A stretch of DNA of 60,467 nucleotides from Patescibacteria group bacterium (GTDB lineage Bacteria; Patescibacteriota; Minisyncoccia; 2-02-FULL-40-12; IGHO2-01-FULL-4-A): positions 1 to 60,467 of the forward strand of contig JBBTYI010000009.1 in assembly GCA_038061865.1 (NCBI GenBank). Direction: 5' to 3'. The translations under genes and the position numbers were made by a program. Shown in pieces: positions 19,127 to 28,783 of this stretch (its first letter is position 1; each line of letters starts with the position of its first letter). The notes beneath the pieces are model-generated. The model ran no database searches. It was given only the letters and a program-made list of their open reading frames with translations, and was not told where the DNA came from.

Positions 19127-20335
19127 TTATTTGCCGGGGACTGCGTTGGGGTCGATGCTTTTTATTTTATCGATCACCGCGTAAATGTGGGTTTTTGAAC
19201 TGGCAAAAACCAAGTAACTTTCGCCGTTGGGCGCATCCACTACGGCATAATCAACTGTATCCAACGGATCGGGAAAGTTGCGGTAGCGGATAGCCGCGCC
19301 TTGATAAGTGTTATCTAGAAAACCAGTGGAGATGGCCCGCGCTACATTCAGGCGAAACAGGTTTTTCAGATCATTTGAAATGGTAGTTTCCCAGTTTCTC
19401 AACGCGGCGCCCGCCGCGGCCGAGTCATTGACTTTAACGATCCAGCCGTAGCTAAAAGTGCTGTCATTCTTACGCATCAGGGAGGCATAGAATTGGCCAT
19501 CATTTAAAGCGGCAATCAAAGTAGCTGGCGCGTTCGGAAAGCTAGCGGAAGCAAACTGGCTAAAAGGAAAATGTTCGCCGCTAACTGGATCGCCTATCTT
19601 ATAAAGCGCTGGGTCACCTAGGGTCAAACTTTGGGTATCACTTAGGCTAGTTAAGCTAGCGAAGAGATCGGGAGTAACATTGGCAATCGGCCCATACACT
19701 TGGGTAAAGACCGTTTCCAGCGGCGGTATGACCACCGGAGTCGGAGTAACCGTAATGCTCGGGGTCGGTGATTCAACGACGGCCGGCGAGGGCTCATAGA
19801 AAACCAAAAACCAAAGCGAAAAACCGCCAATTATCAAAACGGTCAGAATAGCCAGCAATCCGGAACGGCCGAAAACCGGTTTTTTAGGAGTTGGCGGTAC
19901 GGCGATTTGCGCGCTGATGCCGGGCGATGGCCGACTGGTCGGAATCCCGGCAGGAGGAGGAGGGGCAAAAACAGGCCGAGGCGGGGAGACGGGTGATGCA
20001 GGTGTAATAGGCGGTTTTGGAACCACTGAAATAGGTCTTTCCGGAGTAATACCAATGGGAGGTTTCCCTTTGCTCAAAGCGGTTAAATCATCCTGCATTG
20101 TGCGAATTGACGATTTAATATTTGGGCTGGGTGCCGGCGGCGGCATCGTCCCCGCCATAGTTTTTGGCGCTGGGGGTGAAAAAATCACAGGGCCGGTCGG
20201 AGACGGCTGGGGCGGTTTTAACGGAGAAGGGGGAGGCGCCGGCGGGCGGGCGGGGGATGGCGGAATATTTCCGGTTGGTAAATTCGGCGGCGGAATTTTG
20301 AGGTCGAAACCGGAAGATTGGTTTTGATCGGCCAT
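19127..20335 (-). CDS. Proline-rich membrane-anchored hypothetical protein
   Basis: The start was trimmed to MADQNQ. An approximately 150-aa Pro-rich N-terminal region is followed by one TM helix (LLAILTVLIIGGFSLWFLVF) and an extracytoplasmic domain. Confidence 0.5.
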   Translation of the reverse strand: MADQNQSSGFDLKIPPPNLPTGNIPPSPARPPAPPPSPLKPPQPSPTGPVIFSPPAPKTMAGTMPPPAPSPNIKSSIRTMQDDLTALSKGKPPIGITPERPISVVPKPPITPASPVSPPRPVFAPPPPAGIPTSRPSPGISAQIAVPPTPKKPVFGRSGLLAILTVLIIGGFSLWFLVFYEPSPAVVESPTPSITVTPTPVVIPPLETVFTQVYGPIANVTPDLFASLTSLSDTQSLTLGDPALYKIGDPVSGEHFPFSQFASASFPNAPATLIAALNDGQFYASLMRKNDSTFSYGWIVKVNDSAAAGAALRNWETTISNDLKNLFRLNVARAISTGFLDNTYQGAAIRYRNFPDPLDTVDYAVVDAPNGESYLVFASSKTHIYAVIDKIKSIDPNAVPGK

Positions 20336-20402
20336 GCTAACACAACTGCCAACTTCCAATTTCTAACTAATAAAGCATTCGTTAGCGATTGGCGGTTAGC
20401 AA

Positions 20403-22532
20403 TTAGTTGTTGCGCGAGCGCATTGTCAGATTTATTCTACCATACTCATCAATATTTTTTACCCACACGTGGACAACTTGACCAAGCTTCAAAATATCGG
20501 CCGGCCGGCGGATGTGTTCGCCGGCGATTTCCGAGACGTGCACCATTCCTTCCTGGCCGGGTTTAAATTCAACAAATGCTCCAAAATCCATTAGTCGCGT
20601 TACTTGCCCCTTAAACTCATCACCGGGTTTGGCTTCGTAGGTCAGCTCTTCAATCCACTTGATTGCTTTTCCCATCCCTTCGGGGTCGATAGAAGTTATA
20701 AACACCGAGCCGTCATCTTCAATATCAATCTGCACTCCGGTTTTGTCTATAATTTCATTTATCACTTTGCCCTGCGGACCGATAACGGTTCTGATTTTTT
20801 CCGGATTAATTTTAATGATTTTCACCCGGGGCGCGTAAACGGATAATTCCGGGCGGGGCGTGCTGATGGCTTTGCTCATTTGCTCAAGGATTTCTAAGCG
20901 GGCTTGTTTAGTCTGGGCCAGTACTTTCTCCAGCACTTCAATACCAATGCCTTCCACCTTGACATCCATCTGCATTGCCGTGATACCGTCTCTGGTGCCG
21001 GCAACTTTCATATCCATATCGCCGTGATGATCCTCCGGCCCTTGGATGTCAGTTAAGATTTTGTACTTTGGGGCTTGGCCTTCCGAAGCCTTTGGCGAAG
21101 GAGGTTCAAACATCAGGCCCATAGCGATACCGGCGGCCGGCGCTTTGATCGGCACCCCGCCGTCCATCATTGCCAATGACGCGCCGCAAACCGAAGCCAT
21201 TGAGGATGAACCGTTAGAAGACAAAATTTCGGACACCACCCGAATGGTATAGGGAAATTCTTCTTTGCTGGGAATTAACGGTTCCAGCGCCCGCTCGGCC
21301 AAGGCGCCGTGGCCGATTTCCCGCCGGCCGGTAAAACCGATCCGCCCCACTTCGCCCACGCTGAAAGGCGGAAAAACATAGTGGTGCATAAAACGTTTTT
21401 TGGTCAGATTAATTTCCATCGTCTCAATCCACTGTTCCATCCCCGGCGCGGCCAGTGTCAGCGAAGACAAGGCCTGGGTAGTACCACGTTGGAATAGCCC
21501 AGTGCCATGAGAGTGCGGAAGCACGGCAATCTCGGCGCTAATCGCCCGCAGTTCGTCAATTTTTCTACCGTCGGGACGTTTCTCCCCTTCCAGAATATTT
21601 TTGTGAACGATACGGTCAATTTCTTCCTCAAAAATCAGGTTGGCTTCTTTGATTTTTTTGTCCAGTTCCGGGTGGCCGGTAAATTGAGTGGAGAGATATT
21701 CACCCAACTCCGCCTGGGTTTTTTTCAAACCCTCCACATAGGCCTGTTTGTGCGGCGTGTAAAGCACCTTTTCCAATTTAGGCGCGACAAAATCGCTGAC
21801 CATTTTTTTCAAGGCCTCATCGTGGGCAAAAATATTCAAAGTTTTCTTGGCTGTGCCGATTTCTTCGGCGATTTTTTCCTGCAATTTGTTTAACTTTTGC
21901 AGTTCCTTGAAACCGTATTCAACCGCTTCAGCAATGTCTTTCTCCGGCACAATTTTGGCGCCGGCTTCAATCATATTGATTTTGTTGGCGGTGCCGGCCA
22001 CCACGATGTCAAAGTCGCTTTTTGGACGTTCTTCATAAGTCGGATTGGCAATCAATTTGCCGTCAACACGGCCAACCCGGACGGCGGAAATCGGGCCGTC
22101 AAAAGGGATGTCGGAAATCATCAGCGCCAGCGAGGCGCCGAACAACGCCGGAATGTCTGGGTCGTTGATTGAGTCAAAAGTCAGCACCGTAGGCACGATT
22201 TGGACTTCGTTTCGAATGTTGTGGTCAAACCGCGGGCGGATTGAGCGGTCAATCAGGCGGCCGGTCAAAATTGCTTCGTCCGAGGGCCGGGTTTCGCGCT
22301 TGATCCATCTTGAACCTTTGATCTTGCCGGCGGCGTAATACTTTTCCTCATAATCCACCGAGAGGGGAAAGTAGTCGGCGTCTTTCTCGCGTTCTGACAT
22401 GGTGGCCGTCACCAGCACGGTTGACTCCCCATACTGCACGCGGCAGGAACCATTGGCTTGCCCGGCCAGACGGCCGATTTCAACCAAAAGCGGCCTGCCG
22501 GCAAAATCCTCTTTATATGTTTTCACTTTCAT
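20403..22532 (-). CDS. pnp: Polynucleotide phosphorylase
   Basis: 709 aa; two RNase PH domains, KH and S1 C-terminal domains (GQVVHVWVKNIDEYGRINL). Confidence 0.95.
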   Translation of the reverse strand: MKVKTYKEDFAGRPLLVEIGRLAGQANGSCRVQYGESTVLVTATMSEREKDADYFPLSVDYEEKYYAAGKIKGSRWIKRETRPSDEAILTGRLIDRSIRPRFDHNIRNEVQIVPTVLTFDSINDPDIPALFGASLALMISDIPFDGPISAVRVGRVDGKLIANPTYEERPKSDFDIVVAGTANKINMIEAGAKIVPEKDIAEAVEYGFKELQKLNKLQEKIAEEIGTAKKTLNIFAHDEALKKMVSDFVAPKLEKVLYTPHKQAYVEGLKKTQAELGEYLSTQFTGHPELDKKIKEANLIFEEEIDRIVHKNILEGEKRPDGRKIDELRAISAEIAVLPHSHGTGLFQRGTTQALSSLTLAAPGMEQWIETMEINLTKKRFMHHYVFPPFSVGEVGRIGFTGRREIGHGALAERALEPLIPSKEEFPYTIRVVSEILSSNGSSSMASVCGASLAMMDGGVPIKAPAAGIAMGLMFEPPSPKASEGQAPKYKILTDIQGPEDHHGDMDMKVAGTRDGITAMQMDVKVEGIGIEVLEKVLAQTKQARLEILEQMSKAISTPRPELSVYAPRVKIIKINPEKIRTVIGPQGKVINEIIDKTGVQIDIEDDGSVFITSIDPEGMGKAIKWIEELTYEAKPGDEFKGQVTRLMDFGAFVEFKPGQEGMVHVSEIAGEHIRRPADILKLGQVVHVWVKNIDEYGRINLTMRSRNN

Positions 22533-22711
22533 CTGACAAAAACAGACGAAACAGAGAGGGGAGTAATCAGGCTTCAGGCCAAAATTCTTGAGTCATCAAG
22601 CTCTTTGGCGCGTGCCCCATCACCTTCCATTCCTCTCACTCACTACTTCATTTGTTAATTAATAATCAAACAATATTGAAACAAAAGCGGAATAAGTTTT
22701 GTTCATAAAGA

Positions 22712-22939
22712 TTAGAGCAATTCTAAGAATTCTTCTACGGTTAACTTTGCGTCGTTAATAATCGCCCGCACAAGAGATTTTTTGAGTGTTTTGCCAGCAT
22801 GAATTGGGATAACCGTTCTTGTGTTGGTCTTGGGATTTATCAGAATCAGATGACTGCCTTTTTGACGATCCTCTAAAAATCCTATTCTTTTGAGAATTTT
22901 GACAACTTTTTTGGCAACTAGAGCTGGAATCTTATCCAT
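22712..22939 (-). CDS. hicA: HicA-family toxin (YcfA-like mRNA interferase), copy 1
   Basis: 75 aa; KxVKILKRIGF...GSHLIL...IPIH motifs of HicA. Confidence 0.7.
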   Translation of the reverse strand: MDKIPALVAKKVVKILKRIGFLEDRQKGSHLILINPKTNTRTVIPIHAGKTLKKSLVRAIINDAKLTVEEFLELL

Positions 22940-22940
22940 A

Positions 22941-23198
22941 CTATCGGACGGGAAGTGAAACAGGAATCACTACAGTGCTTTGAAAAGATTTTGTTTCTTC
23001 CGGAATTGGCTCGTGGTGAGCAACCAAACTTTCTATGTAAAGCTCAATTGCTTCTTTAATATTTTTTTCAGCTTCTTCTAGAGTTTCGCCTTGGCTGTAG
23101 CAACCCGGAAGAGTTGGTGCAATCACGACAAAACCGCCATCCGGGTCTGACTCATAAAATACGGGGTAAGAATAGATTTTCTTGTTAATTTTTGACAT
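22941..23198 (-). CDS. hicB: HicB-family antitoxin (UPF0150 N-domain only), copy 1
   Basis: 85 aa; YPVFYESDPDGGFVVIAPTLPGCYSQGETLEEAEKNIKEAIELY matches the HicB N-domain; adjacent to hicA with a 1-nt gap. Confidence 0.65.
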   Translation of the reverse strand: MSKINKKIYSYPVFYESDPDGGFVVIAPTLPGCYSQGETLEEAEKNIKEAIELYIESLVAHHEPIPEETKSFQSTVVIPVSLPVR

Positions 23199-23250
23199 TT
23201 GTTCACTTTACCACATTACTTAACAAACTTAAAGGTGGAGAGGATTTGAT
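23199..23250 (-). promoter_or_regulatory. Conserved promoter/operator-like block upstream of hicB copy 1 (shared with the 24230-24290 block)
   Basis: About 40 nt are nearly identical to the sequence upstream of hicB copy 2 (aatcctctccacctttaagttt...taatgtgg). Putative -35 TTAAGT and -10 TAAAGT/TAGATT with a 16-nt spacer. Confidence 0.4.
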
Positions 23251-23761
23251 CTGCGGTTTTTTCGTAGTTGGACTGCACAAAAAACTCGAAAATGCTTTGA
23301 CTGCTTTCAATAAAGTAAAACATTTGAAATTGTGAGGGGTCTTGACGATAGAATCTCTTTACTACAATAAACTTATTACCCCCCAATATTCTCGATTTGC
23401 TTTCCGACAATAAAACTTCGGGGCTAAGGGGAATATCTCGTACCGCCGCTTCAATGTTGGAGGACTTGCTAAACAGTTCTAAGGTAATTCCACAGAATGG
23501 TGATCCGATTCCTTGATTACAACCACCATTTTCAAATATCTCTTTTTTATCAAAAGCAATTATCCCTCCAGCGGAATTGTCATAAGAAAAATTATTCGGA
23601 TACTTGACCTCAAACCCATACTCCTCATTCCGATAGGTTTGCCAGCCTGCCAGAGGGTTAGGAGTTGGACTACTTCCAGACAAATACCAGTACAACCCTA
23701 GACCGGCTAAGGTGAGAATAACGATGAGGGGGATGAGAGCAAAACCAGATTGAGTTTTCAT
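23216..23761 (-). CDS. Small secreted hypothetical protein
   Basis: 181 aa; signal/TM N-terminus (ALIPLIVILTLAGLGLYWYL); the start overlaps the hicA copy-2 stop (ATGA). Confidence 0.5.
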   Translation of the reverse strand: MKTQSGFALIPLIVILTLAGLGLYWYLSGSSPTPNPLAGWQTYRNEEYGFEVKYPNNFSYDNSAGGIIAFDKKEIFENGGCNQGIGSPFCGITLELFSKSSNIEAAVRDIPLSPEVLLSESKSRILGGNKFIVVKRFYRQDPSQFQMFYFIESSQSIFEFFVQSNYEKTADQILSTFKFVK

Positions 23762-23979
23762 TTTAGCAATTCTTCAAACTCTTGAGGAGTTATCTCGGCA
23801 TCTCTTAAAATCTTCCTCAACAAACCACGGCCTATGTCTTTATAGTCAGGAATGGTTATTGATTTTTTACTTGAGTGAGACAAACGTATATGGCTGCTTT
23901 GCCTACGAACTTCCTTATAACCAATCGTGGATAGAATTCTTACCATTTCTCTCCCTGAAAGTATTGGCAAACGAGGCAT
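23758..23979 (-). CDS. hicA: HicA-family toxin, copy 2 (divergent; GSH replaced by SSH)
   Basis: 73 aa; alignable to copy 1 (MPRLPILSGREMVRILSTIGY...SSH...IP). Confidence 0.6.
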   Translation of the reverse strand: MPRLPILSGREMVRILSTIGYKEVRRQSSHIRLSHSSKKSITIPDYKDIGRGLLRKILRDAEITPQEFEELLK

Positions 23980-23980
23980 T

Positions 23981-24229
23981 CTAGAGAATAATTGTTCTGA
24001 GGCTTAATTCTTTCGGGTGGTATGAGTTAAGAATATTGAGAGTTTTTTCTTCTTCAAGAATCATTTTTATAACTTCTCTGATATTGCCTAGTGCTTCTTT
24101 AAGAGTTTTTCCCTGCGTATAACAGCCTTCAAAAACAGGACATTCAACAACATAAAAGCCATCTTCGTCTTTCTCAATCAAAAGAGGAAGCTTTTTCCCG
24201 CGAAATTTTGATAAAGATTGAGATTTCAT
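23981..24229 (-). CDS. hicB: HicB-family antitoxin, copy 2
   Basis: 82 aa; DGFYVVECPVFEGCYTQGKTLKEALGNIREVIKM. Confidence 0.6.
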   Translation of the reverse strand: MKSQSLSKFRGKKLPLLIEKDEDGFYVVECPVFEGCYTQGKTLKEALGNIREVIKMILEEEKTLNILNSYHPKELSLRTIIL

Positions 24230-24290
24230 GTTGATAACAAATCTACCACATTATTCCAAAAACTTAAAGGTGGAGAGGATTTTAATAAAT
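24230..24290 (-). promoter_or_regulatory. Second copy of the conserved hicB upstream block; overlaps the NYN gene 3' end
   Basis: A 22-nt identical core, aaacttaaaggtggagaggatt, plus a flanking accacatta block. Confidence 0.4.
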
Positions 24291-24800
24291 CAAAAATTTC
24301 TTCTGGTCGGAGCCGAGGTCGGTGAAGACATCTACGGTTTCTTTGAGCTTGGCAGAGGTGCTGCGGTCAAAGGAGACCAGTTCCACTTTAAGCCCTTTGT
24401 TGACTTTGAGATACTCAACCAGCGGCATAAAATCGCCGTCACCGGTGACTAACACAGCCACATCAATCTTGTCAGCGAGAATCACCGCATCCACCGCCAT
24501 ACCCACATCCCAATCGGCTTTTTTCATCCCGCCGGCAAAGACCTGTAAGTCCTTGACCTTGATTTCATAGCCGCTTTTTTCCAGCGCCTCAATGAACGCT
24601 TTTTCTTCGCCGGTTTCGGTCTTGATAACATAGACAAAAGCCCGGATTAATTGACGCCCGGCCACGGCTGTTTCCAGCACTTTTTTGAAATTGACTTTGG
24701 CGTGGTAAAGATTTTTGGCCGAGTGATACATATTCTGGGCGTCAACAAAGACCCCCACGCGCTGGTGTTCCGATGTTAGATTAGATTTCCGAATTACCAT
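24282..24800 (-). CDS. NYN-domain (LabA-like/DUF88) putative RNase
   Basis: 172 aa; RVGVFVDAQNMYH...DVAVLVTGDGDFMPLV matches the NYN/LabA signature. Confidence 0.65.
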   Translation of the reverse strand: MVIRKSNLTSEHQRVGVFVDAQNMYHSAKNLYHAKVNFKKVLETAVAGRQLIRAFVYVIKTETGEEKAFIEALEKSGYEIKVKDLQVFAGGMKKADWDVGMAVDAVILADKIDVAVLVTGDGDFMPLVEYLKVNKGLKVELVSFDRSTSAKLKETVDVFTDLGSDQKKFLIY

Positions 24801-24835
24801 AAATTCCGAGTGGTGGCCAGAGGGACTACGGCAAG

Positions 24836-25102
24836 CTAACGCTTCAGTCCTAATTGTTTCACCACTTTGGCGTGTCTTTCCGGCGACTGCTTGAGCAAAT
24901 AATCCAAAAGTCGTTTGCGCTTGGCGACCATTTTCAAAAGCCCGGTGCGGGAGCTGTTGTCCTTGGCGTGCTTCTTAAGGTGCTTGGCTAGACGTTCAAT
25001 TTCTTCCGTAAACAAAGCGATCTGCACCTCGGGTGAACCGGTGTCTTTCTCATGGACGGCGTGCTTGGAAATAATGTCAGTCTTTTGTTTAGCTTTAAGC
25101 AT
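24836..25102 (-). CDS. rpsO: 30S ribosomal protein S15
   Basis: The start was trimmed to MLKAKQK (88 aa). DTGSPEVQIALFTEEI...HAKDNSSRTGLLKMVAKRKRLLDYL aligns to S15. Confidence 0.9.
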   Translation of the reverse strand: MLKAKQKTDIISKHAVHEKDTGSPEVQIALFTEEIERLAKHLKKHAKDNSSRTGLLKMVAKRKRLLDYLLKQSPERHAKVVKQLGLKR

Positions 25103-25239
25103 TGCACCTATAATACCAGAAACTAATTTAGATGACAATTCCCTTATTATGTCGTAAAATAAGACTTGTTGCGGCACACCTGTCGCAAAATGCATTGAGA
25201 TTGTACAACGTTAAGCACATCGCACAATCTCAATATCAA

Positions 25240-26178
25240 ATGCCTGACCTCAAGCAACTCAAAACCCAATTTCTGGAATATCTGGAAATTGAGAAAAACC
25301 GCTCCGCCAAGACGGCGGGGAATTACGACCATTACTTGACTAGGTTCTTGGAGTTCGCCTCCGCCCACGGACGGATCAATCGAGCTGAAGATATCACCGA
25401 AGAATTAATCCGCAAGTTCCGGCTGCAGCTCAACCGCCGGCGTGACCAATTCGGTCGGCCGCTTAAACGCGTCACCCAGAATTATCACGTTATCGCTTTG
25501 CGTTCATTCCTGAAATATTTAGCCAAGCGCGATATCCAAACGGTCTCGGCGGAAAAACTGGAGTTGGGCAAGCAGGAGGAACGGGAAGTTACCTTTCTGG
25601 AACCGCATGAGCTTGAGAGATTTTTGAAGTCGCCGTCAGGCACTGACCTAGCCAGCCGGCGCGACCGGGCAATACTTGAGACACTTTTTTCCACCGGTTT
25701 GCGGGTATCGGAACTGTGCTCGCTCAACCGGGATGAGATAGACCTCAAGCGGGGAGAGTTTTCGGTCAGAGGCAAGGGCAGCAAAATCCGGGTGGTTTTT
25801 TTATCGGACACCGCCAGCGCCGCCTTGACCAATTACTTGGATAAGCGTACTGACGCCGACCCGGCGCTGTTTATCCGCGTGCCCAAAAACGAAAAGTTTG
25901 AAAAATTTGGAGAATTGCGGCTGACGCCGCGCAGTGTCCAGCGCATCATTAAAAAATACGCCGCCGTCGCCGGCATCATCGGAAAAAAAATATCACCTCA
26001 CAGTTTACGCCATAGTTTCGCCACTGACCTTTTACGCAACGGCGCCGATATTCGTTCGGTTCAAGCCCTGCTCGGCCACGCCTCTGTCACCACCACCCAG
26101 ATCTACACCCATGTCACCGACAAACAACTGCGTGAAACCCACCAAAAATACCACGGTAAACAAAAAGGGGTGTCTTAA
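25240..26178 (+). CDS. Tyrosine recombinase, XerC/XerD family
   Basis: The start was trimmed to MPDLKQLK. SAM-like N-domain; catalytic R...HxxR...Y (LRHSFATDLL...GHASVTTTQIYTHV). Confidence 0.8.
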   Translation: MPDLKQLKTQFLEYLEIEKNRSAKTAGNYDHYLTRFLEFASAHGRINRAEDITEELIRKFRLQLNRRRDQFGRPLKRVTQNYHVIALRSFLKYLAKRDIQTVSAEKLELGKQEEREVTFLEPHELERFLKSPSGTDLASRRDRAILETLFSTGLRVSELCSLNRDEIDLKRGEFSVRGKGSKIRVVFLSDTASAALTNYLDKRTDADPALFIRVPKNEKFEKFGELRLTPRSVQRIIKKYAAVAGIIGKKISPHSLRHSFATDLLRNGADIRSVQALLGHASVTTTQIYTHVTDKQLRETHQKYHGKQKGVS

Positions 26179-26186
26179 CACCCCCG

Positions 26187-27101
26187 CTATACTTGGCGCT
26201 CGGAATAAACTGCATCAAGCCAAGAGAAGTTGGAATCAAGCTGGGAAGTGATAAAATTTCTTTCCACTTCCGGCAAAACTAAGCCATTGAGTATATCACT
26301 GAATCCAGAGCGGATTTTACCTACATCCATCTCACAACTTTCGCTCCAGAGTTTCTCGGCTAGTCGGTAAAAGCGTAAGATCGCACCTTCGCGCGTAGCG
26401 GTTACAGCCAACAGATTTTTTTCCGGCAAAGAGTCCAATTTGGTCGTGTAGCTAAGCCAATGACCAGCGTTATCAATCTCCTTTGGCCCGAACAGATCCA
26501 CAAAATAGAGTTTACCCTGTTCATTAAGAACAACGTTGGCCAGTTTTAAATCTAAGCCGTGCGGCAGCAAACTTACTTCCTGGCCGGCAACAACTTTTCG
26601 ATGAACGGATGGCGGCGGATACTTTGCCAGCGTTTCCAAAACCGAGTGGAGGATAAACCATTTACGAAAGTTTGGTTCTTCGCGATTGGCTACCATGAAT
26701 TCGCCGTCACCACCAGTAATCAGTTCCTCATAGGAAAAGATTTGCGCTTCGGTACCCAGTTCCACCGGCTGGGTATAGAACAAAATTGGCAAGTTCCAGC
26801 CATAAGCTGCCAGCTCCTTTTTATAAGGCCCCAGCCGACTGTGTAAATTAGCCGCTAATTCCAGGGAAAGCCCTCTGCCCGCACCCATTCTTTTCCACAG
26901 CACTCGCCGGGATTGGTCTTCTACCTTGTATTCCAGCACGGAAACTTTCGATTGCCGGCCTTCGCTAATTCCGCGATAAGGCACTATCTTAAAATCCGCT
27001 AGATGCTCGTGCCGCTTCAAAATATCCATTTCTTTCTCCTTCGGTTGGAAAAGTTCAGCGTGCGATTTAAAAACGTCAGTTTCCACTAACTGATTTTTCA
27101 T
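26187..27101 (-). CDS. Protein-kinase-like fold phosphotransferase (APH/CHK-like), hypothetical
   Basis: 304 aa; catalytic-loop-like PHGLDLKLANVV and DFG-like VDLFG. Confidence 0.4.
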   Translation of the reverse strand: MKNQLVETDVFKSHAELFQPKEKEMDILKRHEHLADFKIVPYRGISEGRQSKVSVLEYKVEDQSRRVLWKRMGAGRGLSLELAANLHSRLGPYKKELAAYGWNLPILFYTQPVELGTEAQIFSYEELITGGDGEFMVANREEPNFRKWFILHSVLETLAKYPPPSVHRKVVAGQEVSLLPHGLDLKLANVVLNEQGKLYFVDLFGPKEIDNAGHWLSYTTKLDSLPEKNLLAVTATREGAILRFYRLAEKLWSESCEMDVGKIRSGFSDILNGLVLPEVERNFITSQLDSNFSWLDAVYSERQV

Positions 27102-27125
27102 ATGGTAATCCTAACGTAAACTTTT

Positions 27126-27665
27126 TCAGCTTACCAGCAGTTTCCGCAATACTTCCAAGTTCTTCTTCGCCCCGTTCATTGCCCGATGGGGTTTGGGTTC
27201 CGGTTCAATACCGAAGTATTTGCACATTGATGACAAACTAAACTTAGCCAGCCCGGGGAACCGGTCGCGACGCGACCAGCCGATGGAAAACAAATCCAAT
27301 CGGTGGTAGTCCAGCGGGTCCTCCACGGCAGATTTTTTAAATGCTTCGTTGATAAACGCCCAATCGGAGTAGGCGTTTTGGGCGAGAAATATCGCGTTTT
27401 TCGTTTTTTCGGCATAAATTTCCAGCGCGTCTTTCAGTGGCCAAGCTCGCTTCCAATCCCTTTCATTATAACCGTTGGCTTCCAGCGCTTTCCTGACCGC
27501 GGTTTTAATATGTTCCGGCTTGATTTTGACTTCAAATTTATCAATCACTTTCAGTGTTTTTTGGTCCATCACCAAAAGTCCCAATTCAATAATTTCGTGG
27601 ATTTGGGCGTCCAGACCGGTTAATTCAAGGTCGGTTATGGCCAGTGGTCTTTTGAAAAATTCCAT
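27126..27665 (-). CDS. DEDD-family 3'-5' exonuclease (DnaQ/oligoribonuclease-like)
   Basis: The start was trimmed to MEFFKRP; the listed ORF starts at an upstream TTG. Exo I ITDLELTGLD, Exo II-like NAYSDWAF, Exo III-like HRAMNGA. A TATAAT -10 box lies 7 nt upstream. Confidence 0.55.
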   Translation of the reverse strand: MEFFKRPLAITDLELTGLDAQIHEIIELGLLVMDQKTLKVIDKFEVKIKPEHIKTAVRKALEANGYNERDWKRAWPLKDALEIYAEKTKNAIFLAQNAYSDWAFINEAFKKSAVEDPLDYHRLDLFSIGWSRRDRFPGLAKFSLSSMCKYFGIEPEPKPHRAMNGAKKNLEVLRKLLVS

Positions 27666-27688
27666 CCTGATAATTATACCCCAGCTGA

Positions 27689-27732
27689 CCCCTATCAAAA
27701 ACCCCCGCCTAGGCGGGGGTTTTTGATAGGGG
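27689..27732. terminator. 21-bp perfect hairpin (cccctatcaaaaacccccgcc-ta-ggcgggggtttttgatagggg) at the tmRNA 3' end
   Basis: Perfect reverse complement over 21 bp with a 2-nt loop; abuts the tmRNA acceptor end. Confidence 0.6.
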
Positions 27733-28080
27733 TGGACTTGGGGGAAATCGAATCCCCGTCTGGAGGTTCATTTACACAAGCGCTACAAGTTTAGCCCGTC
27801 TTGTTTTAAGTAACCGCGTAAAAGACGGGCGAAATAGCGATTACTTGCTTTGAGGGTTGCGACCGGCGATCGGCAAAGCAACCAGATGCCGGAAGTTCCC
27901 GCTGATGACGTTGGTGACTGACTAGCGGGGTCGTCAGGCCAACGGCTACCTAAATGATGTTAGGCGGCAAACGCGAAATTTTGGTTTGCGTTTAGATTTT
28001 TGATTGTTGATTAAAGCGGTGACAATCATCCGCTACTTGCGCTGGTTATAAACGTACCGCCATCAAAGCCGGTCAAGCCC
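27731..28080 (-). ncRNA. ssrA: tmRNA (SsrA), about 350 nt, tag peptide (A)ANQNFAFAA
   Basis: Minus-strand read: 5' GGGCUUGACCGGCUUUGAUGGCGG resembles the consensus 5' GGGGCUGAUUCUGGAUUCGACGGG. The 3' end has a T-arm GGGGA-UUCGAUU-UCCCC and an acceptor strand CAAGUCC pairing with the 5' GGGCUUG. In frame is GCA AAC CAA AAU UUC GCG UUU GCC GCC UAA. An upstream TTGGAC-17-CATAGT promoter is present, and smpB is 1.8 kb away. Confidence 0.85.
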
Positions 28081-28225
28081 GTCTAAGTTTTTGGACTATG
28101 ACTGCTGGCTGCCCGCTGTCCAAAAATTTTGGCGGGCAAGCCCGTTATTTGACTAGCATACTACTAAATGTTAGCGTAGTCAAACTAGTTTCCTTTAACA
28201 ATTTTACTCAAAACGGAGGTGTGTT

Positions 28226-28783
28226 TTGGACAAAAAGCAAATCGTGATTGTTTGCGGCTATGGCTGTCACCTGACCCCCGGCTACCAGGAATACTTACGC
28301 CGGGTAGTCAGATATATCGGCGAGAATTTTGTTGAGCTGATTATTGTCTGCGGCGGAAAGAGTCAACAAAAAACCGCGCCGGACAAAAGCGAGGCAGAGG
28401 TTATAAGTTCTTTTCTGCAGAACGAACCGGATTGGGAAGAGCTCTATGCCGGCCGTTGTGGACTGCCAAAAATTATTTGCGAAACTTGCTCGTTGACGAC
28501 CCTGAAAAATCTTGGGAACGCCAAGGATTTCATCGGCGAATTTAGCCCGAAGGAGTACCGGTTAATAATTTTCTGCGATGCCAGCCAGGCGTTGAAGGTA
28601 AAATTGCTGGCAATGTCCATCTTTCCCGAGTATGACATCCAAATAGAAACCTACGACCTCTCCAGCCGAGGCGAGGTCAAGAAACAGCTAATGGCCACCA
28701 ATTTCGAAGTATTAGCCCTGAAATTTCCGTTCTTGTCCCGCTGGCATCACCAGCAGCGGGTGAAGCGGGCGGGGCGGATTTAA
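28226..28783 (+). CDS. DUF218 (YdcF/ElyC-like) domain protein
   Basis: 185 aa; TTG start with a GGAGG Shine-Dalgarno; IVIVCGYG...ELIIVCGG pattern. Confidence 0.4.
   Translation: MDKKQIVIVCGYGCHLTPGYQEYLRRVVRYIGENFVELIIVCGGKSQQKTAPDKSEAEVISSFLQNEPDWEELYAGRCGLPKIICETCSLTTLKNLGNAKDFIGEFSPKEYRLIIFCDASQALKVKLLAMSIFPEYDIQIETYDLSSRGEVKKQLMATNFEVLALKFPFLSRWHHQQRVKRAGRI

Follow-up and report, generated by a model that had tools for sequence, protein, structure and literature searches.

Genes between rpsO and pnp

The window, by which I mean the entire 60,467-nucleotide stretch of DNA that was analyzed, comes from Candidatus Yanofskybacteria (Patescibacteria; Paceibacteria/CPR), an ultra-small bacterium of Hainich groundwater. 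Open reading frames and sequence, read along the minus strand, give the gene order rpsO, NYN, hicB1, hicA1, a gene for an anchored protein of 181 amino acids, hicB2, hicA2, and pnp, with the positions that an earlier note on this DNA had given. The assignments in that note also survive comparison with Pfam: both HicA proteins, both HicB proteins, and the NYN protein score above the cut-offs, and S15, PNPase, and Xer hold as well.

At one end lies rpsO (24836-25102, minus strand), encoding the 88-aa form of ribosomal protein S15 (Pfam S15, 103.8 bits; TIGR00952, 108.7 bits), which aligns with its relatives over 88 aa. A consensus scan found a promoter-like site just upstream (25110-25138, minus strand; TTGTCA-17-TATTAT with an upstream TG) that matches 10 of 12 consensus positions. 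Its -10 element ends 7 nt 5' of the rpsO ATG, a leaderless-type layout. At the other end lies pnp (20403-22532, minus strand), encoding a polynucleotide phosphorylase with two RNase_PH domains, a KH domain, and an S1 domain (Pfam) that is 47-83% identical to those of relatives.

Directly before pnp is a conserved structured leader, a long irregular hairpin (22533-22666, minus strand), with homology to relatives starting at 22665. Compensatory changes occur in 14 of its 18 inner pairs, and the z-score of its minimum free energy is -4.4 in the window and -3.1 to -7.2 in relatives; the outer stem appears in single-sequence folds only. At 30 loci a covariance model of the leader finds a single match each, immediately before pnp, and this match is present at every locus that bears an insert. 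When positions 20000-28500 were scanned against Rfam at E<=1, tmRNA was the only match, and neither the leader nor the repeated block to be described below was recognized.

Next to rpsO is a gene for a LabA-like NYN (PIN-like) nuclease (24282-24800, minus strand; PF01936, 122.4 bits against a cut-off of 24.2). Its protein matches structure 2QIP with an E value of 4e-35, and residues D20, N23, D96, D98, D104, D121, and D123 are invariant amongst 13 orthologues. In having a single NYN domain and invariant acidic active-site residues, it resembles the LabA-like proteins typified by 2QIP (VPA0982), the group NYN.COG1432, whose function is listed as unknown (PMC5499597). The C-terminus, KKFLIY followed by the stop, is also native in relatives. 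Diverging from rpsO is a gene for a tyrosine recombinase (25240-26178, plus strand; Phage_integrase, 148 bits). It is of the Xer type, scoring about 243 bits with the TIGR models for XerC and XerD and 230 bits with that for XerA (cut-off 220); the integron integrase model TIGR02249 gives 116.6 bits, in two fragments, against a cut-off of 265.

The four Hic genes, all on the minus strand, form two pairs. The first consists of hicB1 (23981-24229), whose 82-aa product matches HicB_lk_antitox over residues 15-60 only (34.5 bits, cut-off 27), and hicA1 (23758-23979), with a 73-aa product that by homology is a HicA mRNA-interferase toxin (HicA_toxin, 55.5 bits, cut-off 27). The second consists of hicB2 (22941-23198; 85 aa; HicB_lk_antitox, PF15919, 55.1 bits, cut-off 27) and hicA2 (22712-22939; 75 aa; HicA_toxin, PF07927, 68.8 bits, cut-off 27). 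In both pairs the antitoxin gene comes first and the intergenic gap is 1 nt. HTH, RHH, and Phd domains were sought in both HicB proteins and none was matched; the matches that were found end near residue 70, and HicB2 matches only the N-terminal domains of the solved HicBs 6G1C, 4P78, and 6HPB. The KGSH of HicA2 aligns with the KGGH of 1WHZ, at the position of the catalytic histidine. At the same position HicA1 has QSSH, i.e. SSH rather than the GSH of HicA2, with serine replacing the usual glycine before the catalytic histidine. None of the four proteins was matched by any NCBIfam family.

Judged by sequence, both pairs belong to the class 2 hicBA modules amongst type II toxin-antitoxin systems; in this class hicB comes first, HicB has 63-103 codons and no recognizable DNA-binding domain, HicA has 60-85 aa, and the two genes are 1 nt apart (Gerdes 2024, mBio; PMC10865869). 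[quoted passage not shown] If membership in the family is a guide, HicA would act as a ribosome-independent toxin that cleaves mRNA, and the small HicB, a partial RNase H-like domain alone, would neutralize it by direct binding.

Between the two pairs lies a gene for an N-terminally anchored protein of 181 aa (23216-23761, minus strand), its start overlapping the stop of hicA1 (ATGA). The protein itself scores 18.4 bits with PsbP_2 (PF18933), below the cut-off of 27, while 24 of 29 aligned members of its family match that model, the best with an E value of 3e-16. An AF2 model (pLDDT 85.1) used in a fold search had PsbP-type proteins as its top nine matches in PDB (CyanoP, PsbP, and the PsbP-like subunit of the NDH complex; probability 1.00, E from 3e-5 to 1e-4), and so the protein is predicted to adopt the PsbP/Mog1 alpha-beta sandwich fold. 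It differs from known proteins of this fold in coming from a nonphotosynthetic host and in having a membrane anchor at its N-terminus, a hypervariable middle, and invariant terminal motifs. The motifs of the family are WxTYRNxxYGFE and DQILSTFKF, and in the latter region I173, T176, F177, and F179 are invariant over the 29 members.

A core operon with an insertion hotspot

In relatives, the native arrangement is xer, diverging from rpsO, then NYN, then a putative promoter and the structured leader, then pnp. Of the 52 genome loci that were fetched with PNPase, 45 have the order rpsO-NYN-pnp, which extends down to 47% PNPase identity. NYN follows rpsO in all 45, and amongst the NYN loci of metagenomes, S15 lies upstream in 74 of the 74 that could be tested and pnp lies downstream in 56 of 74. 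With rpsO and NYN together at every one of these loci, and xer beside rpsO at most loci whether or not there is an insert, NYN and Xer belong to the core and are not accessory. The NYN protein has a weak match amongst the PADLOC defense models, which I judge irrelevant, the gene being core.

In E. coli too, S15 is encoded upstream of PNPase on the same strand and a long hairpin leader stands right before pnp, a leader that is processed by RNase III (PMC5029454). The arrangement considered here differs in that a third gene, for a LabA-like NYN protein, has a fixed place between the two, and in that the leader is specific to the lineage and absent from Rfam.

The actual insert is about 1.6 kb (22666-24281), running from the NYN stop codon to the conserved pnp leader, and it contains hicB1-hicA1, the PsbP-like anchored protein, and hicB2-hicA2. 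GC content is 37-42% across 22600-24400, as against about 50% in the flanks. Amongst the 45 genome loci, the distance from NYN to pnp is 320 bp or less in 26, while the remaining 19 have 476-5470 bp; in metagenomes it ranges from 12 to 4238 bp. The gap is therefore a lineage-wide hotspot for insertion, from 12 bp to 5.5 kb, bounded on the right by the leader. In relatives it holds HicBA, ParE-like toxins, an ECF (extracytoplasmic-function) sigma factor, and PsbP-like proteins. Within the Hainich population the insert is fixed and intact in variants 99-99.9% identical to the window, and the changes in hicB2 and hicA2 are synonymous only. Decay of the toxins in the population is ruled out, since contigs at this level of identity carry the toxin-antitoxin genes free of stops and indels.

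Other CPR genomes, too, have same-strand hicBA pairs wedged between housekeeping genes. One lies between ftsK and recA, another within a transketolase-aldolase cluster, and a third upstream of rpoB.

These boundaries are not those drawn in the earlier note, which took 22712-24800, NYN included, as a small island of defense or addiction genes, pointed to the Xer recombinase next to rpsO, and suggested for the two HicAB pairs an old duplication with a conserved operator. Drawn out into a model, this makes the stretch one mobile island, mobilized by the adjacent recombinase, with the pairs arising from an old tandem duplication. There is something to be said for this: the genes all lie on one strand in a region of low GC, a recombinase is adjacent, and the block upstream of each pair is far better conserved than the Hic proteins. 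The two pairs and the anchored protein are indeed accessory, lying on one strand between rpsO and pnp and missing or different in most relatives. NYN is not, being syntenic in relatives that lack the insert and having a GC content (0.45-0.48) like that of the flanks. The comparison of synteny thus upholds part of the proposed cassette and removes the rest. Xer adjoins rpsO in most relatives whether inserts are present or not, and since it is syntenic either way and scores as XerC, XerD, or XerA rather than as an integrase of integrons or phage, it is no evidence of mobility, and the recombinase stands outside the insert. As for defense, no PADLOC model of a defense system matches the Hic proteins or the anchored protein. 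Synteny largely refutes the island, and with what follows I give it hardly any probability.

The repeated block and the expression of hicBA

The repeat is a direct one of 39 nt (23209-23247 and 24244-24282), its copies 90% identical with an exact core of 23 nt; the window has two matches, where shuffled sequences lead one to expect 0.00. The earlier note was right that the two pairs have diverged as proteins (HicB1 and HicB2 49% identical over 45 aa, HicA1 and HicA2 36%) while the sequence upstream has stayed nearly the same. It is the explanation, an old duplication with a conserved operator, that fails. Copy 2 (23203-23254, minus strand; nhmmer E 2e-16) comprises the last ten codons of the PsbP-like gene (...DQILSTFKFVK and stop) and a short post-stop part, and PsbP-like genes at related loci L002, L003, L023, L033, and L041 have the block at their 3' end as well. 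Copy 1 (24238-24285, minus strand; nhmmer E 1e-12) is a noncoding remnant of such an end. The block thus consists of the coding sequence with which PsbP-like genes end (...QILSTFKF, V or I, K, and stop) and a short stretch after the stop, and the 23-nt core encodes the C-terminus (QILSTFKF) of a protein family that is unrelated to Hic. With no inverted repeat within the block, and HicB proteins that have no DNA-binding domain, the operator reading is rejected, and autoregulation through an operator is unlikely for modules of this kind. Nor does duplication in place fit the toxins well. The closest relative found for HicA1, which has 192 homologues at E<=1e-8, the named ones from Patescibacteria, lies at another locus in another genome and is 74% identical, as against 36% for HicA2, which favors separate acquisitions. 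HicB1, for its part, shares 56% identity with a HicB that is encoded at another locus, in the genome of another CPR bacterium.

What of the stretch that follows the stop? The full block, with this part, is confined to one sub-clade, the window and L001-L004, where it stands before antitoxin genes or before the pnp leader. Beyond this sub-clade the coding part recurs by itself. Copy 1 starts at the NYN stop codon and reads TTTAAG (24263-24268), a 17-nt spacer, and TGG plus TAGATT (24240-24245), ending 10 nt before the ATG of hicB1. Copy 2 reads TTTAAG (23228-23233), a 17-nt spacer, and TGG plus TAAAGT (23205-23210), 6 nt before the ATG of hicB2. The sequence TGGTAnnnT after the stop codon is conserved in ten copies from five genomes. 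All this suggests that the post-stop stretch, which agrees with a type of promoter proper to this genome (TTTAAG-17-TGGTAnAnT), may serve as an extended -10 promoter of the leaderless type. Of the 39 genes in the window that begin with ATG, 7 have a strong -10 element 5-9 nt ahead of it, compared with 1.4% of all ATGs; four of the seven carry TGn, like the block, whose layout agrees with this TGnTAnnnT-ATG pattern of the window. A generic promoter scan did not list the block, because its -35 matches only 3 of 6 positions. With TGGTAnAnT lying 6-10 nt before the ATG of each hicB, the mRNA of hicBA is probably leaderless. A terminator-like site was looked for on the minus strand from rpsO to pnp and none was found, so read-through from rpsO into hicBA is also likely. 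The layout of -10 element and ATG seen in the block is shared by rpsO.

It may be asked whether the block is conserved for some other reason. Structured RNA and a terminator are ruled out, for the block folds no better as RNA than do shuffled sequences. As single-stranded DNA it forms no hairpin in either copy on either strand (z-scores from -1.05 to +0.84; from -1.05 to +1.25 with RNA included). Gene conversion in the recent past, and not selection, could also explain why the two copies agree at 23/23 positions.

A different view is that the block of about 45 nt is an att-like site, or a region of homology, that shuffles cassettes consisting of toxin-antitoxin genes with or without a PsbP-like gene, and that it is conserved for this purpose and not as a promoter. 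Chromosomal integron arrays often hold toxin-antitoxin cassettes, and there is a likeness: small cassettes on one strand, toxin-antitoxin pairs amongst them, a repeated element of about 45 nt, and a divergent tyrosine recombinase nearby. The block repeatedly punctuates cassettes (four copies in L002, two flanking hicBA in L003, two in the window), and L150 shows what looks like a scar, a duplicated fragment of a flanking gene beside a hicBA-PsbP-like insert. There are nonetheless differences from an integron. The repeat in the window represents the coding end of a gene and forms no hairpin like that of attC, the recombinase is a core Xer rather than IntI and is present regardless of cassettes, and rpsO and NYN stand between it and them. 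An integron with attC sites is ruled out. Further, the full block is limited to the one sub-clade. Taken together with the block, hicB2A2 shares 81.5% of its DNA sequence with the counterpart at the same hotspot in L002, as against 74% for core genes, which is suggestive of recent horizontal transfer, whereas at the protein level the identities of HicB2 and HicA2 (84%) resemble those of the core proteins (PNPase 82%, NYN 88%). I consider an array driven by recombination unlikely overall. Simple homologous recombination between the 3' ends of paralogues may take place and would be compatible with the explanation preferred below.

A proposed history of the insert and what it means

One could also take hicB, hicA, and the PsbP-like gene as a functional unit of three, with translation of the anchored protein coupled to that of the toxin. 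The ATGA overlap of hicA1 and the 181-aa gene invites this, as does the recurrence of the same order in L002 and L150/L151, where the genes overlap by 4 nt or stand 2 nt apart. Tight packing of genes is general in these genomes, however, and close homologues of HicA1 occur in three other hicBA contexts without a PsbP-like gene downstream. Within the window itself, hicB2-hicA2 has none after it. The PsbP-like partners are 29-48% identical over parts, compared with 74% for HicA, so the two have not diverged together. A unit of this kind seems to me very improbable.

The explanation that best accounts for the whole, and the one I think probably correct, is that class 2 hicBA modules were inserted into a hotspot between NYN and pnp, and that the block is the 3' end of a PsbP-like gene plus a promoter. 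In the nearest relatives the block stands directly upstream of the pnp leader, and in the window there is no copy between hicA2 and that leader. From the former I infer that the toxin-antitoxin cassettes appear to have landed behind a promoter already in residence, a reconstruction of the order of events from sequence comparison. Copy 1 would then be the scar of a PsbP-like gene beside NYN that was deleted or recombined away.

How hicBA modules that lack a DNA-binding domain are expressed is an open question (PMC10865869). The answer proposed by this locus is a leaderless promoter lying in the conserved 3' end of the upstream gene, together with read-through of the operon. What sets the pairs in the window apart from others of their class is their setting, inside a core operon of CPR with a promoter that was probably borrowed from the gene before. 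In other respects they are an ordinary addition to a known class in a hotspot of known type: compact hicBA without a DNA-binding domain is the commonest class of HicA, and in CPR genomes it is often wedged into housekeeping operons.

The by-products are of more interest than the toxin-antitoxin pairs themselves. Correcting the first reading of the region exposes a conserved operon of three genes for RNA metabolism, encoding S15, an NYN nuclease, and PNPase, and with it a structured pnp leader RNA that has no entry in Rfam. A search of the literature found no paper tying NYN to rpsO or pnp. The classification of LabA-like NYN proteins reports neighborhoods that include genes for the maturation of tRNA and rRNA and not those for S15 and PNPase (PMC5499597), so the linkage seen in the lineage of the window is absent there.

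The fixed order rpsO-NYN-pnp raises the idea, which I put forward as a tentative one, that in Paceibacteria PNPase may have the LabA-like NYN protein as its endoribonuclease partner. The NYN protein might cleave the hairpin of the conserved pnp leader, leading to autoregulation, or alternatively it could open mRNAs for exonucleolytic decay from the 3' end. RNase III and RNase E fill a comparable role in E. coli. If there is such a partnership, then the hicBA cassettes would simply ride on the promoters of the operon. The linkage of rpsO, NYN, and pnp in itself provides a testable functional lead for the uncharacterized LabA-like NYN family of bacteria.

A core operon and its insertion hotspot

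On the minus strand the genes run from rpsO (24836-25102; Pfam S15, 103.8 bits) through a NYN-domain gene (24282-24800; NYN, 122.4 bits), hicB1 (23981-24229; HicB_lk_antitox, 34.5 bits), hicA1 (23758-23979; HicA, 55.5 bits), the gene for a 181-aa N-terminally anchored protein (23216-23761), whose start overlaps hicA1 by ATGA, hicB2 (22941-23198; HicB_lk_antitox, 55.1 bits) and hicA2 (22712-22939; HicA, 68.8 bits) to pnp (20403-22532; PNPase domains). A tyrosine recombinase gene, Xer (25240-26178), is divergent from rpsO. The ORFs and Pfam matches bear out the earlier note's reading that two HicB-HicA pairs and the gene for a secreted protein, here read as N-terminally anchored, lie on one strand between rpsO and pnp; the two HicA, two HicB_lk_antitox, NYN, S15 and PNPase domains all exceed the Pfam gathering score.

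The same note counted NYN among the members of an accessory island, and here the relatives tell against it. Fifty-two genome loci were fetched through PNPase, whose relatives are Candidatus Yanofskybacteria and other Paceibacteria, and were searched by tblastn with the window proteins. Of these, 45 have the order rpsO-NYN-pnp, the most distant (Jorgensenbacteria, Minisyncoccia) with a PNPase only about 47% identical, and in most Xer adjoins rpsO divergently. Only in the loci from outside the Candidate Phyla Radiation (CPR), L046, L050 and L051, does rpsO stand directly before pnp. A NYN alignment supplied a second, independent sample, 80 metagenome loci, of which 74 have enough flank: S15 is just upstream of NYN in all 74, and pnp is downstream in 56. 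On this synteny, NYN and Xer are core genes of this lineage. Across Paceibacteria the three genes rpsO, NYN and pnp stand in a fixed order (the window and 125 related loci, L001-L136). Of the genes between rpsO and pnp, NYN is thus core in relatives, and the Hic genes are not.

Of the 45 genome loci, 26 have at most 320 bp between the NYN stop and pnp, and 19 have 476-5470 bp; the metagenome loci range from 12 to 4238 bp. Expanded gaps carry further N-terminally anchored members of the 181-aa protein's family and other toxin-antitoxin (TA) pairs, HicBA (L002, L003) or ParE-type toxins (L029, L002), with an ECF sigma factor gene in the L002 gap, and their GC is usually below that of pnp. In the window GC drops to 37-42% across about 22600-24400, the NYN gene having a GC like that of the flanks. 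Across the lineage, the NYN-pnp gap of this core operon is a hotspot for insertions. Since DNA homology with the nearest relatives resumes at 22665, the start of the conserved pnp leader, the accessory segment is 22666-24281, about 1.6 kb, rather than 22712-24800 as first proposed. Exact matches of the proteins put the region on contigs from Hainich groundwater. Eight further contigs of that population, 99-99.9% identical, have the same arrangement without indels and with TA genes intact; all differences in hicB2 and hicA2 are synonymous, and hicA1 has the substitutions V13A and P65L.

Other features of the neighbourhood deserve mention. The Xer-rpsO spacer varies in relatives from 27 to 1917 bp and the rpsO-NYN spacer from 0 to 570 bp (e.g. 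L003, L007, L009, L010, L012, L018, L027), and there is therefore more than one insertion-tolerant site. Downstream of pnp, a 410-aa proline-rich membrane-anchored protein (19127-20359, minus strand) is syntenic in nearly all Yanofskybacteria loci at 25-49% identity. A tmRNA gene (27731-28080, minus strand; tag peptide ANQNFAFAA) adjoins a DEDD-family 3'-5' exonuclease gene (27126-27698), so that RNA-metabolism genes cluster again within a few kb of rpsO-NYN-pnp.

Two hicBA pairs and an anchored protein

In both pairs the antitoxin gene comes first, with a 1-nt spacer. HicA is 73-75 aa and HicB 82-85 aa, and the profile and PDB matches of HicB are limited to its N-terminal toxin-binding domain, ending near residue 70. 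Class 2 hicBA (Gerdes; PMC10865869), whose regulation that paper explicitly leaves open, is defined by reversed gene order and by a HicB of 63-103 codons in which no DNA-binding domain is recognisable. The window pairs share the hicB-first order and the small HicB lacking such a domain and, as judged by sequence, fit class 2 exactly. In an alignment with 1WHZ, a T. thermophilus structure of the HicA family, HicA2 keeps the G-x-H motif (KGSH vs KGGH); HicA1 has SSH at the aligned position.

Are the pairs an old duplication, as the earlier note suggested? Between the two pairs, identity is 49% over 45 aa for HicB and only 36% for HicA. A pair that follows ftsZ in another CPR genome (L150/L151) is closer to the first, at 74% for HicA1 and 56% for HicB1, and HicB2 and HicA2 are 84% identical to the L002 pair in the same hotspot. 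On these identities, the window's pairs are no simple local duplication. Close homologues of HicA1 are also found among other housekeeping genes, on their strand (the ftsK/recA gap, a transketolase-PfkB-aldolase cluster, upstream of rpoB), so modules of this type are commonly wedged into core operons in CPR. The L002 pair belongs to a 5.5-kb array (L002 1531-7001) that also holds the ECF sigma factor, a DUF4349 protein, three to four PsbP-like genes and a ParE-like pair.

The 181-aa protein has 86 homologues at E ≤ 0.001 in a database search, those with a named source being Patescibacteria. Among 29 aligned homologues, of which 24 match Pfam PsbP_2, N-terminal WxTYRNxxYGFE..P and C-terminal I..STF.F motifs are invariant and the middle is hypervariable. 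Its AlphaFold model (pLDDT 85) matches CyanoP/PsbP and Mog1, which it would resemble in its predicted fold. Many family members, this one (23680-23761) and homologues P0004, P0005, P0021 and P0039 among them, begin MKNQKGF(A/S)xIP, resembling the class III (prepilin-type) signal peptide motif, with cleavage between G and F, without Glu at +5. They may be processed by prepilin peptidase.

The repeated block as gene end, scar and probable promoter

A block precedes each antitoxin gene, copy 1 at 24244-24282 (hicB1) and copy 2 at 23209-23247 (hicB2), the two being 90% identical over 39 nt with a 23-nt exact core; the window has two block matches, 100 shuffles none. The earlier note was right that the block is nearly identical where the proteins (HicB 49%, HicA 36%) have diverged, and it took the block for a conserved operator. 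No inverted repeat or hairpin potential, as DNA or RNA, was found within it, and the HicB matches lack a DNA-binding domain. The exact core sits at the 3' end of anchored-protein genes in relatives, encoding (D)QILSTFKF[V/I]K and stop, and copy 2 is therefore simply the end of the 181-aa gene. The operator reading was rejected, the conservation being explained by coding constraint and a probable promoter.

Copy 1 begins at the NYN stop codon, following a C-terminus (KKFLIY) native in relatives, and is non-coding; in the frame of ILSTFKF a stop codon lies three codons before it. It reads as the scar of a PsbP-like gene that would once have followed NYN and whose 3' end remains. L003 still has such a gene, starting 2 nt past the NYN stop. 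In L150 (also L151), where the hicB-hicA-PsbP-like insert follows ftsZ, about 90 nt from the 5' end of the downstream trxB-like gene occur on both sides of it (L150 3145-3264 and 4274-4364), in a truncated 39-aa copy upstream and in the intact gene downstream. This duplication is a recombination scar comparable to copy 1.

The L002 array is punctuated by four block copies. Ten copies from five genomes keep TAAYRTGGTAnnnT beyond the stop codon. This is a -10 element extended by TGn, and TTTAAG or TTTAAA stands exactly 17 nt before it. The spacing from the -10 element to the antitoxin ATG is 6 nt for hicB2 and the L003 hicB, 8 nt for an L002 antitoxin gene and 10 nt for hicB1. In L001-L004 the pnp leader is itself immediately preceded by the block. 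Of the window's 39 ATG-start genes, 7 have a strong -10 element 5-9 nt ahead of the ATG, vs 1.4% of all ATGs, with TGn in four of the seven. The rpsO gene has TTGTCA-17-TG-TATTAT, ending 7 nt before its ATG. A clear Shine-Dalgarno sequence precedes only 5 of the 39, and leaderless mRNAs appear common in this genome. The seven starts are 10318(-), 25102(-), 32670(-), 49817(+), 52169(+), 52576(+) and 55387(+), the hexamer often TGnTAnAAT, without Shine-Dalgarno.

Because the layout is conserved and the window's own genes use it, I read the block as a probable resident promoter of leaderless transcripts, behind which TA cassettes have come to lie. A generic promoter scan of the window did not flag it. 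The hicBA genes would be transcribed leaderless from the block, with read-through from rpsO adding to this. Such read-through, on to pnp, is also likely, because a scan found no terminator-like site on the minus strand between the two genes.

The pnp leader and the NYN protein

The roughly 130 nt before pnp (22533-22666, minus strand; immediately upstream of pnp in L001-L036) form a long irregular hairpin in Yanofskybacteria-level relatives. Compensatory changes occur in 14 of 18 inner pairs (17-sequence alignment), and single-sequence folds give z-scores of -3.1 to -7.2 and show an outer helix that is not the same in sequence from one relative to the next. A covariance model matched 30 loci, 13 of them left out of model building, each with exactly one strong match that always abuts pnp; apart from weak antisense echoes, nothing else in the 1.09 Mb searched passed E 0.001. 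An Rfam scan at E ≤ 1 gave no match to the leader. As a candidate for a new cis-regulatory RNA, the leader may serve pnp autoregulation, and it would be similar in logic to the E. coli pnp leader (PMC5029454).

The NYN protein is a single LabA-like NYN domain (E 4e-35 to 2QIP) with invariant acidic residues. The classification of PIN-like domains (PMC5499597) lists group NYN.COG1432 as of unknown function and names neighbourhoods with tRNA/rRNA maturation, S15 and PNPase not among them, in contrast to the linkage here. No paper that links NYN to rpsO/pnp turned up in the literature searches. That NYN is a putative endonuclease partner of PNPase is a reasonable lead.

The earlier note's observation holds up, its interpretation only in part. 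The hicBA find itself, a new instance of a known TA class in an insertion hotspot of a core operon, is modest. Most of the interest lies in what came with it, the rpsO-NYN-pnp operon and the pnp leader.
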